Assembly: GCA_964609035.1 (NCBI GenBank)
Contig: CAZSQL010000003.1
Location: 4,058-68,057 of the forward strand
DNA length: 64,000 bases
Source of the DNA: an uncultured Candidatus Peribacteria bacterium
GTDB lineage: Bacteria > Patescibacteriota > Gracilibacteria > Absconditabacterales > Absconditicoccaceae
Direction: 5' to 3'
Part shown: piece after piece, positions 5,840-61,497 of the stretch
How the letters are laid out: each line of letters starts with the position of its first letter
Position numbering within the stretch: position 1 is the stretch's first letter
Notes under the pieces: model-generated
Told to the model about the DNA's origin: nothing
Seen by the model: only the letters and a program-made list of their open reading frames with translations
Databases searched by the model: none
Program-made: the position numbers and the translations under genes

Positions 5840-5990
5840 AATTAAACTTACAATAAAATGTTTTTTATAAAATTATTGTATATAACTTATATTATAATTC
5901 AATTAAAATAATCTATATATTAAATTTAAACTAATATAATTAGCGAAAGCTTAATCTAATAATTATTTTATCTTTTTTTAATTTAATTTA

Positions 5991-6188
5991 GGGGCTTCTT
6001 CATCTTTAAAAATAAGAAAAATCCAAATTGGGATACATATCCTCACCCCGCAATTCTGCGGGGTTCAGTCATCTAACAGCCACTATCCGACATCTTCGTT
6101 ACACTCAGACATCGGACCATCGGCAAACGTTATACGTCATAGTCCCATCTATAAAAAAAACATAAAGAGACAGGAAGAGCTCTTTTTT
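5991..6188 (+). ncRNA. Candidate structured RNA / repeat element, family member A
   Basis: 5' GCUuCUUC pairs with 3' GAAGAGC. Internal TAAC..GCC..GGC-AAAC-GTTA helix covaries with members B and D. Carries the CCCCGCAATTCTGCGGGG hairpin (6046-6063). Ends in the palindrome AAGAGCTCTT plus a T-run. Confidence 0.35.
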
Positions 6189-6196
6189 ATTTTAAC

Positions 6197-6547
6197 TTAA
6201 TTTTTTTTAGAAAATGACTTCTCTCGCCCGACTAACTGCTTACTAATAGACTCAATCATCTGATTGATAACAACAAAATCTTTCAAATCAATTTCTCTCA
6301 AATCCTTGCACAATCTTATCAACAATCTCACTACTTCGATATATCCTCTCGCCTGTTCTAGATAATTCTGTTTTTCTATGTGTGAATTAGCACGATAGAT
6401 AGCAATAATCAAGTCAATAGCTTCTTTCTTGATCGTTTCTCACAGCGTGTATTTGTAATCTCTTTTGAAATTACGTACGACCAAAAATAACTTTTGCAAC
6501 AAATCGTAGGAAACTTTGTAAACAGGTAAATTATCGTATATTGCCAT
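6197..6547 (-). CDS. avd: DGR accessory variability determinant (Avd; four-helix-bundle / 23S rRNA IVS protein family)
   Basis: MAIYDNLPVYKVSYDLLQKLF...IAIYRANS...VRLLIRLCKDL. Start overlaps the RT 3' end by 17 nt. Joins ORF-track pieces 6440..6673 and 6197..6412 through a TGA. Confidence 0.75.
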
Positions 6548-7748
6548 GGCAATATCATTGAGGATAAAGATTTTTAATTTCAGAAGATTTGAGTTTTCTG
6601 ATATTGGGAATGGCTTTTGCATATGATTTTGTGAAATGGAATTGTGACCAAAACTTATTGGAGAATTTATCAATCACTTTCTTTCTGATGTTGTACGTTC
6701 TATAATGATTGAGAATTCATAGGTAGGAATTAACTATCGATTGCGTAAGCTCTTTATCAAAATTTTTGCTTTTATTCACTTCCTGCACTTTTTTGTAAAA
6801 ATTCCCAATCGTTCTTTTGCGTATATAGGTACGATACGGCTTGATATATGCTCAAAGAAATTGTGCTCACTTGGTATAATGTTGAAAATAGATTTTCTTG
6901 GGATGAAGCGTAAGATGTAATTTTTTAGTCAGAAAATCTCTAATTTTGGAAATCGCAGAAAGTAATTTTTCCTTGTCAGTATCGATGATAACAAAATCAT
7001 CTACATATCTGCCATAATACGAAAATCCTAGTTCATACTTAATATATTTATCCAAACTATCCAAGTAAATATTGGCAAATAACTGACTTGTTAAATTTCA
7101 AATTGCAAGTCCTGTGTCCTTCGGAGAGTGAAACAGACTTTTGTCGTTTGGTAATCAATTTCAGTCAGATTTGGATCATTTGATAATGCAATTCTGAGTA
7201 GAATCATGAAATATGACCTGACGAATAAGTTTGATGAGAAAATCGTAATCAATAGTCAATCTTTCCCTTTTTTCGAACAAAAATGTTTCAATTTTTTCAA
7301 ACAATATCTGTTTGTCAATGTGCATAAAAAATCACTTGATATCGAGCTTGAGAATATAAACATCGCGACTATAATTTTGCGAGCAAGAACGAAGAAAATG
7401 TTCTACTCTTTTGATGCCAAAATGTGTTCACTTTTCTAATCTGCAGCTATAACTATCATAGATAAAATGACGATCAAATAGTTCGTAAATATAATTGTAA
7501 ATCAAGTGATGAATTATTCTATCACGAAAATCCGCGGCGAAAACTTCCCTTTGGACGGGATCTTTGATGATAAAGCAGATACTGGGACTGATAGCATAAG
7601 TTTCGTTCACTAAATCATTTCGCAATTCAATAATTTTTGATTCATAATTCATTTCAAAAGCAACAGCAGAATTTGTATTTCTTTTATGCTGACGAGTATC
7701 GTAGTATGCTTGGAATAAATCATAAAGTAGCTTGTCTGTATCTAACAT
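6531..7748 (-). CDS. Diversity-generating retroelement reverse transcriptase
   Basis: 405 aa joined from three ORF-track pieces in one frame. DGR-specific motif LAIGNLTSQLFANIYL (Gly is TGA) and catalytic YGRYVDDFVII. Confidence 0.9.
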
Positions 7749-7767
7749 TTTTCATAATCATATAAAA

Positions 7768-7806
7768 GCTGACCGAACCCCGCAGAATTGCGGAGAAATG
7801 ATCAGC
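7768..7806 (-). promoter_or_regulatory. Stem-loop in the TR-to-RT spacer of the DGR RNA
   Basis: Outer stem GCTGACC/GATCAGC (with a G-T pair) encloses CCGCAGAATTGCGG (7778-7793). Lies between the TR end (7814) and the RT start (7748). Confidence 0.5.
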
Positions 7807-7813
7807 TTATTCC

Positions 7814-7977
7814 AGTTCTTGAGCAGACGACCGCTGAAACCATAATTTCTATTATTATTGTTTCGATTCCATTTATTCTGATTGAAGTTTGCATTGTTTC
7901 CACCAGCCAACCAAACGTTGGATCGTTCTCCGATATTGTTGAATTTATTATTATTCGGATTCCAGTAGCCCGCAAGG
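7814..7977 (-). repeat. DGR template repeat (TR)
   Basis: 164 nt, aligns gap-free with 8241..8404. 20 mismatches, 18 of them at TR adenines on the coding strand. Rich in AAT/AAC codons. The 3' 28 nt (GGTTTCAGCGGTCGTCTGCTCAAGAACT) is identical to VR. Confidence 0.85.
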
Positions 7978-8133
7978 AATAAAGATAGCCACTAACTTTG
8001 TCATACTATCCTAGCGAATAATATGATCTTTTACTACCATACAGTTTTATATGGTGGGCTATTGAACTAGACATACACGCTCCTTGTTCCCGTAAGAACA
8101 AAGACTCTGGCAAAAAATCTTATAGAGAAAAAT

Positions 8134-8158
8134 GGACAAAATGCAAAGCATTTTGTCC
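8134..8158 (-). terminator. Hairpin terminator downstream of the DGR target gene
   Basis: Perfect 11-bp stem GGACAAAATGC-AAA-GCATTTTGTCC, followed on the minus strand by ATTTTT. Confidence 0.5.
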
Positions 8159-8223
8159 ACCGATATTTTGTTGAATTAGATTTTTTGCTTGAAATAGTCA
8201 ACATAGACAAATAGTCGGATGTT

Positions 8224-8236
8224 TCGGCTACGCCGA
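8224..8236 (-). promoter_or_regulatory. Short GC hairpin immediately 3' of VR (candidate DGR target-recognition hairpin)
   Basis: TCGGC-TAC-GCCGA begins 3 nt past the target stop codon and VR end. Position matches the hairpin/cruciform described downstream of VRs. Confidence 0.45.
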
Positions 8237-8238
8237 GT

Positions 8239-8997
8239 CTAGTTCTTGAGCAGACGACCGCTGAAACCATAATTCCTGTTAAAATTGTATCAACTCCATT
8301 CATACTGATCGAAGTCTGCACCGTCCCCACCAGCCAACCAAACGTGGGATCGTTCTCCGATATTGCTGAAAATATCATTATTCGGATTCCAGTAGCCCGC
8401 AAGGTGACCCTTGACTTCTTTATTAAAGAATTTCTTGTATTCGTCAGAACGATCTGGTTTATCTTTCATTTTCTCTTTAAGTTCATCAACCGTCATCAGA
8501 TATTTCTGTTCAACTTCTTCCTTGCTGCAATTCTTAGCTTTCATCACTTCTCTGATAAATGCATCATAAGTAATGAATATTTGTTCTCATTTTGCTGGTC
8601 ATTCAAGATATTCTACCACGTCTCACGTAGCATTTACTTTTACTTTCATCTCTCCTTTATTATAAACATTCCTTTTTTCTTCTTTCCATCCTTTGCTATC
8701 GATTTTGAACGTATCTTCCTCGAATTCTAATGATTTAGTAAGTGTTTCTTTGGATTCTTTTTTGCTAGAAACTTTCTTTTTAAGTTCATCGCCTCCATGA
8801 AGCATATTGTAGGCTTCTTCAAAAGAAACGCCCATTTTTTCAGCGACTTTTTTGATAAGTGCTATATCTTCTTTACGAATTTTTATTGTCTGTTGAAATC
8901 ATTCTGTTTGTTTTCGTCCATCTCTAGTTTGCTTAATAGTTTCTTGTGTCTTTTTCTTTTTTTGAGAAACATATTCTGCAACTTCATCATCAGACAT
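8239..8997 (-). CDS. DGR target (variable) protein, C-type-lectin/FISUMP-like C-terminus carrying VR
   Basis: 252 aa, ATG 8997 to TAG 8239. C-terminus ...LAGYWNPNNDIFSNIGE(CGA)SHVWLAGGDGADFDQYEWSGYNFNRNYGFSGRLLKN. Three ORF-track fragments in one frame joined by TGA. Confidence 0.8.
8241..8404 (-). repeat. DGR variable repeat (VR)
   Basis: Last 164 nt of the target CDS. Counterpart of TR 7814..7977 with adenine-specific differences. Confidence 0.85.
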
Positions 8998-9342
8998 AAC
9001 TTCTGCAAGTTTCTTTTGCTGTTCTTAAGTAATAGCACCTTGTTTCTTAATATTCTTGAGTATCGCTCAATTTTCTCTGATAATGTCTTGTGTTTTTTTG
9101 ATTTGATTGTTCATAGGAATAAAAGTAATGAAGTAAAGTTATGTAGTAATTATAATCAGAATTTTTTATTTTGCAAATTTTTGAAAGAGAAAATTTTACT
9201 GGTAAAATCTATCTGTTTTAGTTAGGTTTTAACACTTGAATCTTTTAAAGATTTTCAATAATTTACACTTGATTCTATTTTGCGAATTCTTATATTTTTA
9301 TCGGAAAAGACAAACTAAATATTTACGTATAATCGCTAATAA

Positions 9343-9936
9343 ATGGCTAATTTAAAAGACAAATTACTTAACTTAAACAAAGAAATACTAAAAAAAGATT
9401 TTTTAGAGAAATTAGTAAAGAGATTTTGATATACCTACGAAATGGACGATTTATCCAATCTGGGGTATATCTCCGTGATAAAAAATGGTAAACGATATTA
9501 TAATAATCAGATCAAAACCATCAAAAATCCGTATATCATCTGAGCTGCGTATATGGACTTCAAAGACTATATGTTCTGATGACCAAATTTCTTCAATAGA
9601 TACGGCTTTACGACTCAAGTTTCCAATATTTTCACCGTATATAATCTTCATTATTCCAAAGAGATCGAAATACTCGGAATCAAATATAATTTCAAGAAAG
9701 TAAAAAAAGAGTTTCTCTATGGGAAAGACACAAAAATGATCAATTATCACAATCTGTATTTTATGAATAAAGAAAGATGCTTTCTTGAATTTGTAAGGAC
9801 ATATAGCTCGTATGACGATACATTCTTCATAGATAGCTATAAGCTTTTAGATAAAGAGAATTTAGCCAAAATGATAAAAAAGTATCCTATCAAATCCGTT
9901 TTAGATAAAGTAAAAAATATAGAAAAATGTATATAA
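9343..9936 (+). CDS. AbiEi-like antitoxin / transcriptional regulator
   Basis: 197 aa. ...LSNLGYISVIKNGK.YY... resembles the AbiEi wHTH region. Stop overlaps the start of the downstream AbiEii gene by 10 nt. Confidence 0.55.
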
Positions 9937-10784
9937 ACAATATCAAAAAGTTTATTTGAGTAGATTTTGATTATTCCAAAAAAGATTTTCTTGAAATATT
10001 GGAATTATCCAATAGTTATGGATTCGACGCATATAAACTCGAAAAAGACTTTCTTCTGACGGTTATCTTGATTTTCATCTGAAGAAATTATAAGGAACTG
10101 ATTTTCAAAGGATGAACTTGTCTCAACAAAATTTATCTTGATTATTTCAGATTGAGCGAAGATTTAGATTTTGTAGTGATCAATACATGAAATAGAACAG
10201 AAAGAAAAGCGATATTAGAAGACTACAAACAGAGATTGACCAAAGATTTGGCTACACTCGGACTGGAAATCACCGATCAAAGAACGAAATATAACGAAGA
10301 TAGACAATGAATCTTCAATTTTTCGTATATTTCGCTCATAGACAATTCCCCACAAAATATTCAGATAGATATCACCATGAAAGAAAGATTAGAAATTGAG
10401 CCTGTAAGCAAACACATAAAATCGATTTTTATCAGCAAGACTATGGAAGAAAGCATTTTCATTGAAAACACAATAACCTGTATGGAATTTGATGAAATAG
10501 TTGCAGAAAAGACAAGAGCGAGTCTTACAAGAATACAACCGGCAATTAGGGATTTTTTTGATGTCTGGTATATCAAGAATTTTGCAAAATTCGACTTTGA
10601 AAGAATTATGGATTTGATAGAGACAAAACTGGAAGAATCGAATCATGAATATACTATTAATGAAAGCTTCGATTTGCTCGAAAAACAGATTGAAACAGAT
10701 TTGAAGCCCGTATTGAAAAAGAATTTCGAATTTGACCTGAAAGAGATATTCGAATTCATCAAACAACTGAAAACAAAAAAATAA
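9927..10784 (+). CDS. AbiEii/AbiGii-family nucleotidyltransferase toxin (DUF1814)
   Basis: 285 aa. LEKDFLLTVILIFI...LIFKGGTCLNKIYLDYFRLSEDLDFV is the family hallmark. Extends ORF-track 10377..10784 upstream through TGA codons. Confidence 0.8.
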
Positions 10785-10845
10785 TGAGCTGAATGTGAGC
10801 CACAAATGAGCCAAATAAATTTTAACTTTTTTTTAATTTAATTTA

Positions 10846-11037
10846 GAAGAGCCCTTCCTTTTAGTGATTGTGGGTTTAATTACGGACTACGAACCTACAA
10901 CACGCACTATCCGATATCCCCGACCTAATGGACTTCAACGGTTCGTCGGAGCATCGGACTAGTGCGAAACGTTGTCTGTCATATCCCTATAAGCAACTAA
11001 GTCCTTTCAGAAAGAAATTTAGAGGGGATTTTTTTTA
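10846..11037 (+). ncRNA. Candidate structured RNA / repeat element, family member B
   Basis: Closing pairing CCCTTC/GAGGGG. Nested helices ACAAC/GTTGT, CGCAC/GTGCG, TCCGAT/ATCGGA, CCGAC/GTCGG with a conserved unpaired AAAC. Ends GGGGA plus T8. Flanked on both sides by TTTTTTTTAATTTAATTT. Confidence 0.4.
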
Positions 11038-11176
11038 ATTTAATTTTTTTAGAAAAAGAAAACCCGCCACCACGAAGGTAAACGGGAAATGCTTTTTTAA
11101 CAACTCGAAATGAAAAATGTTTAAGTTATCACTATTTTTCTAAAGCATAACTAATTAAGATTCATTGTAACTAATG

Positions 11177-26795: not shown

Positions 26796-27716
26796 CTACT
26801 CCAGCATCCAAGGATATCTTTTTTCTATCTCTTTCACTAAATTTTCAGGTCTAATAACTCCAAACTCAGTAATAATTCACGTAATACACTTAGCAGGAAC
26901 TAGATCAAAAGCATAGTTGAGTATGTCCAATCCTTCTGGTGCTTCTGGCCAAAGTTCTTTGCCAGATCTAGTCTCTATTCATATAGTATTTGTCATGTCG
27001 ACTTTAAGCAAACTTCAAACTATATACAAAGGTATACCAGAATGCCAAGCAGACAAGGCTATAGAATAGCTTCCCACCTTATTTATTGTATCTCCATTTG
27101 TTCTAATACAATCTGATCACAAAAATACTTTGTGTATATCTAAATCATTTTCATATATATTATCTACAAAAAATGGAGCAGAACTATCTGTAATCATGGT
27201 ATTTGGCACACCAGCAGATACCAAATCTTTTGAAGTTTTTCTTCATTGATACAATGGTCTTGTTTCAGTATTGTAAACATGTATTTTTTTTCAATTATCC
27301 CATGCTGTTTTCAAAATTTTAGTAACCGAACCTGAATGACAATGTGTCACAATATTTTCACCACTATCAATCAACTCAGCACCAAGCCCTGTCCTAATCT
27401 TTTCTTCTTCATTTATCCAAGTTAAGTACTCTGCAAAAGCATCTGCAATTTCAATAGCACTTGCTCCATGATTTAATTTAAATCTAGCATATTTCATACC
27501 ATTACGAAGCATTGGCTCAGTTTCTCTAGCCTCTATAAGAAGTCTTGTTGATTTATCAAAAAATATTTTCAATTCTTTTTTACTAGAAAATTTTTTGCTA
27601 CGAAGCTGTTTTTCCATTACTTTACAGGCCTCTCTAGCAATATTAGTAGCTCATTGTATTGTAATAGTACCAATATCATCAGCTATTTTTAATATAATAT
27701 CATCAATTTTTACCAT
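26796..27716 (-). CDS. Ribose-1,5-bisphosphate isomerase (eIF-2B alpha/beta/delta family)
   Basis: 306 aa. ...IVTHCHSGSV...ETRPLYQGRKT...FLGSDCIRTNGDTINKVGSY. Confidence 0.8.
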
Positions 27717-27904
27717 GTTTTATTTTAGAATTTTAAAACATCATTTAATTATATATTATTTCATATTTTTTTGCAAATTTTTGAGGATTTTGTAAATGTA
27801 CTTGTTTTATTAATCACCCCCTATCCCCCGGGAATATAATTTACTTGCAAAACCATATTTTTTCAAATAGATCTCGGTAGTCGGGTTTGTTTAATAAAAC
27901 AGAT

Positions 27905-28250
27905 GGAAATTATTTTCTGTCTCCCCATCTTGCAGGCGCGTTGTCATTGCGAGGTTTACTCGGCAGTATTGCCGAGAAATCGAAGCAATCTGCACTCGCG
28001 CCTACATTGATTGTGAGTTTTATTTTCTGTCTCCCTCCTCTTGCAGGCGCGAATTCGAATTCGCGCCTACATTGATTGGAGATTTTGTTTTCTATCTCCC
28101 TTTGTCCTAAATCACCCACTATGCCCCTCTTTGATAAAGAGGGGGAATATTATCTGAATAAGCACCTCTTTGCCTGCCCCGCAGAACTGCGGTTGGTCAA
28201 AGAGGACCACCCTCTCCTCAGAGGAGAGGGGTTGGGGGAGAGGTCTGACT
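27905..28250. repeat. Cluster of GC-rich REP-like hairpins (locus 1)
   Basis: TGCAGGCGCG...CGCGCCTACA units (28041-28070 contains the perfect 24-nt palindrome AGGCGCGAATTCGAATTCGCGCCT). Also CTCGGCAGTATTGCCGAG, CCCCTCTTTGATAAAGAGGGG, CCGCAGAACTGCGG, CCCTCTCCTCAGAGGAGAGGG. Homologous to part of 61090-61250. Confidence 0.75.
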
Positions 28251-28254
28251 ATCA

Positions 28255-30921
28255 TTAACTTCTTCACTTCTTAATCCTATTTACCACAAACGCCAACACA
28301 AACAAAACCAACAATATTATTGCTATTTGCAACCACATCATAGATGATAATGGTTTTGTCTGAAATATTTCTGCCAAAAATGGAACATAAACCACCAAAA
28401 ACACTAATCCAACAGACAATAATACTGCACCAAAAAGCCATTTGTTTGACCAAAATGGTAAATTATATTCATCTCTAATCATCCATATTCTAAGCATCTC
28501 CAACAAAGTCAAAAGCACAAAAACTCAAGTCCTAGCTTCCACAAGATCTATTGAGTAGTTTTCCATAAACAAAAACAAACATCAAGCAGTCATAGCAATA
28601 GATAGGATTATTATATTTATTATCATATTTCTATCTACAATCTTAGATCACAATCTTCTAGGTTTGTGCGACATAATATCTGGACTAGCTGGATCTACTC
28701 ACAAAGCAAGAGCTGGCAATCCATCGCTCACAAGATTGATCCACAAAATTTGTATTGCTATCAAAGGCAAAGGTAACCCAATCAACACACTTATAAAAAT
28801 AATCAGTATCTCAGCAAAATTGGTAGAAAGAAGATAATTTACAAATTTTTTGATATTATCATAAATTCATCTTCACTCATATATGGCGTTTACTATCGTA
28901 GCAAAATTATCATCCAAAAGTATCATATCACTTGCTTCTTTAGTCACATCTGTGCCAGTAATTCACATCGCCAGACCAATATCAGCATACTTCAAAGCTG
29001 GAGCATCATTGACCCCATCTCCAGTCATAGCTACTATATTTCATTTTTTCTTCAAAAGTTTGACTATTCTCTGTTTGTGAGCAGGACTAACTCTAGCAAA
29101 TACTCAAATATCATCTATCATTTTTCATAATTTTTTGTCATCTATCTTGTCCAATTCCAGCCCATCCATAGCCATTCACTTAATTCAAAGTTCATGAGCT
29201 ATAGCTTTGGCTGTAATCACATTGTCTCCAGTAATCATAACTACTCTAATCCCGGCTCTTTCACAAATAGCTATCGAATCCCTTACTTCTATTCTAGGCG
29301 GATCTATCATCGCCTGCAACCCCACAAACACCAATCATGATTCTAATTGATAATTGATAGTTGATAGTTGATAATTATCAATTTTCAATTTTCAATTATC
29401 AACTGATTTATATGCAAACCCAAGCACTCTCAAAGCAGATTCTGCAAATTTTTTATTTTGATCTAATATTTGTTTCTTATCTTTTTCTGTCATCTTTTTT
29501 ATCTCACCATTTATCAACACATGACTACACTTCTCCAATAAAATTTCAGGCGCCCCCTTACTAAACATAATTCACTCTTCACTTTTCACTCTTCACTCTT
29601 CACTATATATCGTCGTCATCAACTTCCTCTCAGAATCAAAAGGAATTTCATCCAACAATTTATATTGTTTTTCCAAATCTTTTCTTACAAGTCATCATTT
29701 GATAGCACTGACAAGCAAAGCCACCTCAGTAGGATCTCAAACAATATTTTCTCAATTTATAGCAGAATTGTTGCACAAAACTCAAATTTTTAATATCTGT
29801 TCTAGTGAATTTATATTTTCTTTATTTTTGGACAGAAAATCTTTTTTTCCAAAATCTTGATAACCTACTCCATCCAAATCAAAAACCTTATCGTCTACAA
29901 AAATATGTTTTACTGTCATTTCATTTTTGGTCAAAGTTCATGTTTTGTCTGTACAGATAATATTTACAGATCACAATGTCTCTACACTAGAAAGTTTTCT
30001 CATCAAGGCATTTTTTTTGACCAATCTTTTTACTCACAATCACAAAGCAATAGTCACTACAGCAGGAAGTCACTCTGGTATCGCTGCTACAGATAAAGCT
30101 ATAGCTACCAAAAATGCTTGCTGCCAAGTATTTCAGACAAAAAATATAGCACTCACAAAAATAACTGCACATATCACAATCACTACAGCACCAAGCCATT
30201 TACTCAATTTATCTAAATCTTTTTGTAAATTAGTTTGTTTTTCTGGAGCTTCTTGTATCATACCAGCAATTTTACCAATCTCAGTCTGCATACCAATAGC
30301 TACCACAATAGCTCTACCATGTCATTTGGTCACTACAGTACCAGCAAAAAGCATATTTTTTTGGTCTCACAAAGCCGAATCTTTGTTTATAGTTTCTATA
30401 TTTTTGGCAACCGGCATAGACTCACCTGTCAGTACAGCTTCGGCCACTTCAGCACTCATAGATTGTATTATACGAGCATCAGCTCAGATTTTATCTCCTG
30501 CATCAAAAATCAAAATATCTCATACAGTCAAATACTGTGAATCTATCAATATCTCTTTTCCATTTCTGATTACTCTAGATTTCAAACTAGCCATCTTTTT
30601 CAAAGATTCTATAGACTTCTCAGCCTTGTATTCTTGTACAAAACCAAGTATTGAATTTAAAATTACTATCAAAATAATCACCACACTATCTACGGCTTCT
30701 CATACAAATATGGAAACTACAGCAGCAATAATCAATATCAAAATAAGAAAACTTTTGAACTGATTCAAGAAAACTTTCCAAGCACTGATTTTCTTTTCAT
30801 TGGTCAAAATATTTAATCCATATTTTTCTTGCTTATCTTGGACTTGTTTGTCAGTCAATCAAATTTCCACATCTACAGCCAATTCTTTGGCTACATTTTC
30901 TATAGGTTTTTGGTAATACAT
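28255..30921 (-). CDS. P-type cation-transporting ATPase (P2, Ca2+/SERCA-like)
   Basis: 888 aa. ICTDKTGTLT (Gly is TGA), [28 protein letters not shown]. The ORF-track C-terminal piece 28264..28518 ends at a TGA, so the gene continues 3 codons to TAA. Confidence 0.9.
29347..29402. repeat. Imperfect 56-nt palindrome of TTGATAATT words lying in frame inside the ATPase CDS
   Basis: TTGATAATTGATAGTTGATAGTTGATAATT|ATCAATTTTCAATTTTCAATTATCAA. Translates without stops as ...[21 protein letters not shown]... just before [10 protein letters not shown]. Confidence 0.8.
29571..29603. repeat. Tandem TTCACTC/TTCACTT words in frame inside the ATPase CDS
   Basis: TTCACTCTTCACTTTTCACTCTTCACTCTTCAC encodes SEEGRVKSEEG immediately before the conserved KGAPE. 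Confidence 0.75.
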
Positions 30922-60989: not shown

Positions 60990-61497
60990 TGTAAGGGCGA
61001 TTAGTAATCGCCCCTATTTTATGGCTTTCCGATTTGACGAACTGCATACACCAGCAAAGAAAGATTTTATTTAGTCCACCTCCTATTGCATACACGTTGT
61101 CATTGCGCGAACGTAAGGAGTTCACGACACTTTGGGAAACCTGCGAAACAATCTGAACTAACGCCTACATTTTATCGACTATTTTTACTCTTGTCTTGCA
61201 GGCACGAATTTTTACCAATCCTTTGGTTGGCGAATTCGCGCCCACATCATTTTTTTATATTAAAAACATCTTGATTTGTAGGGAACGCTCGCGCCTGCCT
61301 GCCGGCAAAGGCAGGAGCGTTCCCTACATAAAAAAAACTTTTTGTCGTAAGGGCGATTAATAATCGCCCCTACCTCGTTTTATTTTATTAAATTATACTC
61401 TTTGGAAAAAAATATAATAAAAATGTAAGGAACGGTCGCGACCGTTCCCTACAAAATACATTATTTGTTGTAAGGGCGATTACTAATCGCCCCTACA
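60990..61497. repeat. Cluster of GC-rich REP-like hairpins (locus 2)
   Basis: Five hairpins of the form TGTA(A/G)GG-[GC palindrome]-CC(C)CTACA at 60990, 61277, 61347, 61424 and 61469. Also a degenerate copy (61090-61250) of the 27940-28075 unit. Confidence 0.75.

Follow-up and report, generated by a model that had tools for sequence, protein, structure and literature searches.

Repetitive extragenic palindromes (REPs) and the REP-associated tyrosine transposases (RAYTs) have, to our knowledge, been studied almost only in Proteobacteria. The closest described systems are the REPs, bacterial interspersed mosaic elements (BIMEs) and TnpA-REP (RAYT) proteins of Enterobacteria and Pseudomonas, together termed the 'REPtron' (PMC2817692, PMC3333891, PMC3479197; PDB 4ER8). 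In Pseudomonas, the inverted REP doublet, or REPIN, is taken as the replicative unit (PMC3116915). Here we analyzed a cluster of GC-rich hairpins at positions 27905-28250 of a 64,000-nt stretch of DNA (hereafter the window; G000:C3:4058-68057) from an uncultured Candidatus Peribacteria bacterium (GCA_964609035.1), whose assembly comprises 1.156 Mb in 83 contigs with 28% G+C. The cluster lies in the spacer between an isomerase gene and an ATPase gene. Our results indicate that these hairpins are very probably REP elements served by RAYT transposases. A literature search found no account of RAYTs or of REP families from Patescibacteria, the candidate phyla radiation (CPR) or Gracilibacteria.

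Two hairpins of the spacer, at 27931-28006 and 28042-28071, have common feet, TGCAGGCGCG...CGCGCCTACA in plus-strand orientation. Read from the minus strand, the two have the form TGTAGG...CCTGCA, and we refer to them as REPs of family A. The feet pair completely on the minus strand through a T.G wobble vs a C.A mismatch on the plus strand, and this asymmetry was found in all copies. The elements of the spacer are listed below; z-scores compare the elements folded as single-stranded DNA with dinucleotide shuffles.

27905..27930, minus strand: extra copy of the AGAGGAGGGAGACAGAAAA-like part of the linker, 3' of A1 on this strand (repeats D2 and D5)
27931..28006, minus strand: REP of family A, long variant (A1), with feet TGTAGGCGCG / CGCGCCTGCA
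28007..28041, minus strand: conserved 35-nt linker of the REP-A unit, AGAGGAGGGAGACAGAAAATAAAACTCACAATCAA on this strand (direct repeats D1 and D2)
28042..28071, minus strand: REP of family A, canonical 30-nt form TGTAGGCGCGAATTCGAATTCGCGCCTGCA (from sequence, repeats and fold, z -4.9)
28072..28104, minus strand: third, diverged copy of the linker, 5' of the canonical REP-A on this strand (repeats D1 and D2)
28110..28150, plus strand: low-copy hairpin without GTAG feet, AAATCACCCACTATGCCCCTCTTTGATAAAGAGGGGG, the hairpin itself at 28125-28145 (4 genome copies; z -3.5; repeats D4 and D8)
28160..28206, plus strand: low-copy nested hairpin CCTCTTTGCCTGCCCCGCAGAACTGCGGTTGGTCAAAGAGG, the hairpin itself at 28165-28205 (z -3.2; partial copies on contig C2)
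28210..28230, plus strand: short perfect hairpin CCCTCTCCTCAGAGGAGAGGG (inverted repeat I7), weak relative to shuffles (z -1.6)

Within the canonical 30-mer, 24 nt form a perfect palindrome, AGGCGCGAATTCGAATTCGCGCCT, in which GAATTC occurs twice. In the A1 element, which folds at -21 kcal/mol (z -4.7), a nested module, AGTGCAGATTGCTTCG...CCTCGCAATGACAA, takes the place of the loop and has the hairpin CTCGGCAATACTGCCGAG inside it. The first-pass annotation of this DNA had described both footed hairpins, the palindrome with its two GAATTC cores and a structured insert in the other element. All of these are in the sequence, the insert between the feet measuring 56 nt and not 60 nt. Its count of at least six GC-rich hairpins is likewise reached with the two REPs, three other hairpins and the hairpin nested in the A1 element. 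The REPs of the spacer presented z-scores of -4.5 to -5.0 and the remaining hairpins of -1.6 to -3.5.

Each REP is followed by a linker of ~35 nt, and REP plus linker thus form a short tandem array. The 3' feet and linkers recur with a period of 65 nt and the two REPs start 111 nt apart, because the A1 unit carries the 56-nt insert. Both REPs at 27931-28071 have the same orientation and are therefore direct repeats. The right-hand part of the interval (28105-28250) is made of three hairpins that belong to low-copy families and lack GTAG feet, one of which (28165-28205) contains a nested CCGCAGAACTGCGG. The interval is a small BIME-like cluster, in which two direct family-A units have three unrelated low-copy hairpins alongside them. 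REP identity, which had been proposed for the whole of 27905-28250, thus holds for the two footed hairpins and not for 28105-28250. We also observed that the 5' part of the element at 28110..28150 recurs at 27812-27840. These two copies of a ~30-nt direct repeat (27812-27840 and 28110-28153; AATCACCC(C/A)CTAT(C/G)CCCC...GGGAATAT(A/T)AT) bracket the REP-A pair, and a hairpin is inserted in the second copy.

The spacer between the ATPase stop and the isomerase start measures 538 nt, close to the 540 nt given previously. In the congener G003, the orthologous spacer is AT-rich, ~60 nt long and empty; the spacers of G001, G007 and G008 contain other hairpin elements. Among 61 relatives, family A was found in this genome and in the congener G008 (~8 copies), and the exact REP-A 30-mer occurs in one other public metagenome-assembled genome (MAG), 'Patescibacteria group bacterium UR.bin133'. 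Given the differing occupancy of the spacer and the restricted distribution of family A, the REP-A cluster is a lineage-specific acquisition. The isomerase-ATPase spacer itself serves generally as a landing site for elements of this kind.

We then considered the genome as a whole, in which we identified ~100 GTAG-footed hairpins that fall into three families, A, C and D. A strict census of perfect GTAG-footed hairpins yielded 59 copies vs 4 in a reversed-sequence control. The three families have a common foot, (T)GTAGG...CC(T/C)(T/G)AC(A), and all begin with (T)GTAG/GTAA. On one side the tag is partly degenerate, with CTGC or TTAC in place of CTAC, which results in a G.T wobble on one strand only. 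Family A, TGTAGGCGCGAATTCGAATTCGCGCCTGCA, comprises 25 short-form copies, 14 of them identical, and ~18 long forms. Family C (consensus TGTAGGGGCGATTAnTAATCGCCCTTACA) has ~32-37 copies, and family D (TGTAGGGAACGsTCGCGAsCGTTCCTTACA) has 14 to ~20. Among the unique variants of family D in five genomes, four of the nine stem pairs presented double-sided changes and 97.7% of the cells were paired, a value reached by none of 500 shuffles. These elements are thus short GC-rich palindromes in many extragenic copies, with a GTAG 5' foot and a lineage-restricted sequence, as expected of REPs.

Long variants exist in each family and carry an extra small GC-rich hairpin in the loop or centre. A1 (~15 copies in the genome) contains the GATTGCTTCG...CGCAATGAC module, which in turn holds variable hairpins. 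A2 and C1 have inserts of 20 nt and 24 nt, respectively, and D1 and D2 contain one or two CCTGCC...GGCAGG hairpins. We additionally noted that the hairpin CCTGCCTrCCG..AGGCAGG is present in ~60 copies nested in REP loops or centres (e.g., 61277-61328 and G000:C5:43997-44065). Other nested small hairpins include CCCCGCnnnnnGCGGGG and the GATTGCTTCG...CGCAATGAC module, and double insertions are present as well. A separate hairpin of 20 nt, CCTACCTACCGGCAGGTAGG, interrupts a fragment resembling a tRNA 3' end (GGTGGGTGTAGGTGGAC...CTCGAACCAC) at G000:C32:12455-12504 (L022 250-305), a stretch in which ARAGORN called no tRNA.

Most of the dispersed copies lie singly or in direct arrays of mixed families (C-D-C, C-A), and together they form ~45 dispersed clusters. 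Mixed arrays are direct and have conserved linkers (C-16 nt-D-49 nt-C and C-16 nt-A); alternating orientation was found only in the arrays inside RAYT genes. The regular spacing with alternating orientation that defines BIMEs was found neither at 27931-28071 nor in the C-D-C arrays. Several contigs end in REP clusters (e.g., G000:C9:28, C24:15938, C41:8107 and C66:9), and REP repeats are probably a main cause of the assembly breaks. Our copy numbers are therefore lower bounds.

The position of REPs relative to genes was assessed with a crude gene call (table 25), in which 87% of the genome is coding (~13% non-coding). REPs are intergenic except in repeat-made open reading frames (ORFs) of at most 135 aa and in two RAYT genes. 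Twenty were located between convergent genes vs three between divergent genes. This preference for gene 3' ends would fit non-mobile cis-regulatory elements of the host, i.e., terminators or 3' mRNA stabilisers. The T-run that follows family D in the GTAG orientation would fit them as well, and E. coli REPs are reported to act on 3' untranslated regions (bioRxiv 10.64898/2026.03.23.713779). We nonetheless regard this explanation of the hairpins as very unlikely. REP-A lacks a T-tract and is followed by AGAGGAGGG, and a terminator scan of 27600-28400 found no site on the transcribed (minus) strand. Orientation relative to co-directional flanking genes follows no rule (2:2 for A, 5:4 for C and 4:3 for D). 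Identical 30-mers occur at unrelated loci and are absent from the orthologous spacer of congeners, and the tandem arrays and nested copies would be unexpected for terminators. It is possible that some REPs were secondarily exapted as regulatory elements. Known structured RNAs were searched with Rfam 15 at permissive thresholds in this locus and in a second cluster of the window (locus 2, see below). Only sub-threshold chance hairpin matches were found, the best at locus 1 reaching 23.3 bits vs a gathering threshold of 46 and all of those at locus 2 falling far below threshold.

The interpretation of these hairpins as REPs predicts RAYT genes, and we searched the whole genome with the Pfam family Y1_Tnp (cut-off of 23 bits) and scored the C20 and C8 genes listed below against the NCBIfam equivalog NF047646 REP_Tyr_transpos (cut-off of 80 bits). 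The RAYT and RAYT-like genes of the genome are:

G000:C20:4259-5047 (L001 994-1782), minus strand: C20 RAYT gene (Y1_Tnp, 31.4 bits)
G000:C8:11869-12396 (L021 1070-1597), minus strand: C8 RAYT-like gene, intact, 175 aa with 5 TGA codons
G000:C1:66445-67005 (L002 1408-1968): third RAYT-like paralogue, conserved in the genus, in which the HUH histidines are missing (LPDRFYFVL)

The C20 protein has the HUH motif YDHFHIL and a RAYT-type C-terminus (FHDHIIRNEGDFVQHLKYIQFNYLKH / KFQRQKSFHDHIIRNEGDFVQHLKYIQFNYLKH). Residues H62, H64 and Y230 of this type are invariant or nearly so in 30 homologues. An AlphaFold model based on these 30 homologues has a core predicted with a pLDDT above 90 and a low-confidence insert encoded by REPs. 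The best PDB match of this model was 4ER8, in which E. coli TnpA-REP is in complex with a REP (E 1.4e-5; target-based TM 0.68), followed by the TnpA proteins of IS608 and ISDra2. Scored against REP_Tyr_transpos, the native C20 ORF reached 70.1 bits and the same ORF with its REP array removed in silico 81 bits. The C8 protein (49.9 bits) has the HUH motif PNHLHGIL and a tyrosine in IIEYIELNP. For each gene REP_Tyr_transpos was the only NCBIfam family matched, besides a weak transpos_IS200 match (16.5 bits vs a cut-off of 55, for the in-silico spliced C20 protein). Together, the motifs, the Y1_Tnp match and the model match identify a RAYT fold, i.e., a Y1 HUH domain with one catalytic tyrosine. 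The C1 paralogue is presumably catalytically dead, given its missing histidines. We note that databases already label such genes automatically as 'RayT'.

The RAYT genes adjoin the matching REP families. About five REP-A units lie just upstream of the C20 gene and five more lie within its ORF; a family-C REP is found 20 nt past the C8 stop and another within that ORF. Cognate REPs also flank the RAYT homologues in L046, L047, L014, L003 and L008. Unlike an insertion sequence (IS), the RAYT genes are present as one of each type in this genome and in conserved position. In L046 and L048 the C20-type gene has the same neighbours as here, ComEC and a pyruvyl-transferase-like gene, which fits a domesticated single-copy RAYT. 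Families C and D were detected in five of the nine congeners (G000, G001, G002, G007 and G008, but not G003-G006), and these are exactly the five that carry a C8-type RAYT. Since kin are not independent, this co-occurrence is suggestive only.

These gene surveys bear on two further explanations. It is highly unlikely that the repeats amplify without RAYTs, either as miniature inverted-repeat transposable elements of TnpB-type elements or by slippage and gene conversion. Two TnpB-like ORFs are indeed present in the assembly, on contigs C55 and C71, and the tandem arrays with a period of 57 or 65 nt suggest expansion of the slippage type. However, no REP of family A, C or D is found on these two contigs, no Y1 gene lies beside the TnpB-like ORFs, and slippage would account for local arrays but not for ~45 dispersed clusters, nor for the co-occurrence of REP families and RAYT types in the genus. 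The single-copy Y1 genes and the location of the TnpB-like ORFs likewise differ from the organization of IS200/IS605 elements. As a side observation, these TnpB-like (Cas12f1-like_TNB) ORFs (G000:C55:1526-1726 and C71:1747-1950) are ~385-390 aa long, contain no TGA codon and sit on small contigs; they may represent foreign or contaminant DNA.

The least probable explanation in our view is that the hairpins are integron-like cassette recombination sites used by a tyrosine recombinase rather than a Y1 transposase. The genome encodes three proteins of the Phage_integrase family, one of them in the window. Yet the 30-nt near-perfect palindromes occur in tandem with no gene between them, and we saw on inspection no motif common to the REPs or right-hand hairpins and the folded repeats at 5973-11052. 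Moreover, the REPs are physically linked to Y1/HUH genes and their GTAG foot is typical of REPs. REP elements served by RAYTs therefore remain our preferred interpretation. The first-pass annotation had read the GTAG/CTAC-like feet around a palindrome as the signature of REPs mobilised by RAYTs, and the further genome copies, the HUH/Tyr genes, the Rfam search and the comparison of spacers were all favourable to it. Transposition of the elements is an inference.

Both RAYT genes carry their own REP in frame. In the C20 gene, five family-A units are located between the HUH and Tyr motifs; the unit measures 57 nt (19 codons) inside the gene vs an intergenic period of 65 nt. REP-A-like units were also found, in frame and in the same position, in the following close metagenomic homologues, in variable number:

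P0004, 99% identity to the C20 RAYT: 5 internal units, differing in composition from those of G000
P0001, 89% identity: 7 internal units
P0003, 76% identity: 1 internal unit
P0002, 70% identity: 2 internal units

A homologue with 54% identity has another REP family, GCTCGAAAnCGnTTTCGAGC, with two copies upstream, one inside at the same place and two downstream. Internal and flanking REPs therefore change together. We extended the survey to the family-A RAYT clade, using 48 genes from metagenome contigs (L052-L111) and a few other loci. A perfect hairpin with a stem of at least 8 bp was found between the HUH and WQKSFHDH motifs in 41 of the 48 genes, a sample whose ascertainment favours intact ORFs (truncated N-terminal products such as P0007, 95 aa, exist). 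The stems have a median of 12 bp and a maximum of 27 bp and are mostly loopless; in control segments the median is 6 bp, and in shuffles ~6 bp. The outer arms, as a rule GAAGGCG...CGCCTTC, encode E-G-x5-R-L-R. Several of the palindromes have the REP-A centre GCGAATTCGAATTCGC and one has TGTAGG...CCTACA feet. Most of the surveyed loci presented no further copy of the palindrome within 2.5-4 kb. The clade spans Patescibacteria, Cloacimonadota and other groups, and its Cloacimonadota members keep the intragenic palindrome as well. In one Cloacimonadota MAG (L050, GCA_018334695.1), the family-A RAYT homologue lies in a CRISPR-Cas operon, between cas6b and a Cas8b/TM1802-type gene.

The C8-type genes present a comparable arrangement. 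In eight of nine congeneric genes, a GC-rich segment bracketed by GTAG...CTAC directly follows the HUH motif. The gene without this segment is that of G006, a genome that also lacks families C and D, and a more distant homologue in G056 has a hairpin in this position that lacks GTAG feet. The single internal REP is of family C in G001 and of family D in G007 (GTAGGGAACGGTCGCGACCGTTCCTTAC, encoding VGNGRDRSL). Internal doublets, in which GTAGGGG...CCCCTAC encloses an inverted pair of hairpins, were found in G000, G002 and G007; in G000, the REPIN-like doublet after HUH reads GTAGGGGAAGATATTATCTTCCC ... GGCGATTAATAATCGCCCCTAC. The RAYT-internal hairpins GGGAAGATAnTATCTTCCC and GGGAGCTTAnnAAGCTCCC are not amplified families and occur almost only inside RAYT genes. 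This second clade independently has a REP or REPIN-like doublet immediately after its HUH motif.

Dispersed REP-A copies and the units inside the C20 gene have common flanks. The 3' flank AGAGGAGGG was found in about half of the dispersed copies and in the units inside the RAYT gene, and a 5' flank ...CCCAnnAA is common to both sets. The REP-A unit with RAYT-internal flanks occupies ~40 intergenic sites. The simplest reading is that the palindrome would be an old, selected feature of the RAYT clade that, in this lineage, multiplied inside the gene and came to occupy intergenic sites. The conserved palindrome, the in-frame arrays and the internal REPs of the second clade suggest that RAYT genes would hold the master copy of their REPs or an autoregulatory operator for them. 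We consider it a real, though tentative, possibility that the REP family of the spacer originated from a palindrome in the coding sequence of its own RAYT, and that this palindrome may continue to template or regulate it.

Several steps can be proposed for the mobility of these elements. The REP hairpin would extrude in single-stranded DNA, where a RAYT of the TnpA-REP (HUH/Y1) type would recognize the stem and the GTAG foot, and the HUH/Tyr site would cleave and rejoin the strand. Units would then spread during replication into the DNA between genes, mostly near the 3' ends of genes. Family A would be served by the C20 RAYT, and family C, probably with family D, by the C8 RAYT. The small hairpins inserted in the loops of other hairpins would fit a single-strand target. 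We infer catalysis, the single-strand mechanism and the pairing of RAYTs with families by analogy with the established biochemistry of TnpA-REP and IS200/IS605 TnpA (PMC3333891, PMC3479197, PMC8266576). Direct observations are the anatomy of the elements and their copy numbers, the constraint on their structure, their restriction to the lineage, the differing occupancy of the spacer and the embedding of RAYT genes in matching REP families.

Other results weigh against this interpretation. The native C20 ORF and the C8 protein both score below the REP_Tyr_transpos cut-off. No RAYT of this genome carries family D, and G008 has family A while no close C20-type homologue was found in its assembly (94% complete). 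The inverted REP pair that defines a REPIN was found neither at locus 1 nor in most clusters. REP orientation presents a bias too weak to be decisive in an assembly of 83 contigs, agreeing with GC skew in 29 of 45 clusters (p = 0.07) and with the majority gene strand in 30 of 45 (p = 0.04 uncorrected). No transposition event, empty-/filled-site pair or strain polymorphism was observed, the relatives being only ~75% identical. Finally, the hairpins at 28105-28250 are not accounted for by the REP/RAYT model.

The window contains a second cluster of these repeats, locus 2. An alignment of 27905-28080 to 61068-61262 has a column identity of 76%, so that the homology of ~170 nt to 61090-61250 reported in the first-pass annotation is real. 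The two loci have a common architecture of long REP-A, linker and REP-A, the second REP of locus 2 having a 20-nt insert in its loop. The REPs of locus 2 are:

60990..61018, minus strand: REP of family C with a degenerate 5' foot, AATAGGGG (census)
61087..61169, minus strand: degenerate copy of REP-A1 (alignment with locus 1)
61197..61246, minus strand: REP-A with a 20-nt hairpin in the loop, variant A2 (sequence, census and alignment)
61277..61328, minus strand: REP of family D whose centre contains a nested CCTGCC...GGCAGG hairpin (census; z -7.6)
61346..61374, minus strand: REP of family C (census)
61424..61453, minus strand: REP of family D, canonical form TGTAGGGAACGGTCGCGACCGTTCCTTACA (census; z -5.1)
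61469..61497, minus strand: REP of family C, canonical form (census; z -6.5)

The spacer of locus 1 is flanked by two genes:

26796..27716, minus strand: IF-2B-family gene of the ribose-1,5-bisphosphate-isomerase (R15P isomerase) type, whose product had no exact database match
28255..30921, minus strand: P-type cation ATPase gene

Long ORFs are obtained only with TGA as a sense codon (table 25), which therefore indicates a recoded Patescibacteria genome; TGA encodes Gly in this host. The ORFs called across the hairpin cluster (27887-28258 and 27903-28274) consist of repeat sequence and had no match in a Pfam search. They are artefacts, as had been suspected for 27887-28258, and the same is true of ORFs called across REP clusters in general. 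Within the ATPase ORF, we observed an in-frame repeat of an AT-rich palindromic word, TTGATAATTGAAAATTGAAAATTGATAATTATCAACTATCAACTATCAATTATCAA, at 29344-29402, with many similar copies in congeners.

These results describe a complete, multi-family REP/RAYT system in an ultra-small, recoded genome of a candidate phylum, in which ~1% of the DNA lies in hairpins. The origin of REP families and the linkage of single-copy RAYTs with REPs are open questions that this system addresses. A RAYT with its own in-frame REP at a conserved, clade-specific position offers a testable source for REP families, and the in-frame REP points as well to a way in which RAYT and REP could stay linked or the RAYT could regulate itself. 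Contig breaks in such MAGs often fall at REP arrays, a point of note for annotation.

GC-rich palindromes in AT-rich genomes, in frame within genes and nested in one another, are known from the GC clusters of yeast mitochondria and the palindromic elements of Rickettsia. We know of no HUH transposase associated with either, and neither has a sequence relation to the REPs described here. GTAG-tagged palindromes are another parallel: in the survey by Di Nocera et al. 2013 (PMC3733652), they have the tag at one end and several families per genome, as here. That survey predates most CPR genomes, and the tag is here partly degenerate on one side. Like REPINs, the elements are non-autonomous hairpin repeats tied to a vertically inherited RAYT, and inverted doublets are found in the C8-type genes; unlike REPINs, the two REPs at locus 1 are direct repeats.

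Relative to the systems of Enterobacteria and Pseudomonas, the host differs, as it is a Patescibacteria genome of 1.16 Mb with 28% GC and TGA=Gly. In contrast to known BIMEs, clusters are mostly direct instead of alternating, and hairpins are nested in the loops of other hairpins. Unlike known RAYTs, the genes carry REPs in their reading frame, and word searches of core REP/RAYT papers found no mention of intragenic or internal REPs in RAYT genes. Between the HUH and WQ motifs, the proteins have an insert of ~25-100 residues, which is absent from the E. coli protein. In other respects the likeness is close: as in Enterobacteria and Pseudomonas, the REPs are GC-rich palindromes of 27-30 nt with a GTAG-type foot, in tens of extragenic copies and with species- or genus-specific sequences. 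As in other REP/RAYT systems, they form clusters with conserved linkers, a single-copy HUH/Y1 gene lies amid its own REPs, and the best structural match of its product is 4ER8.

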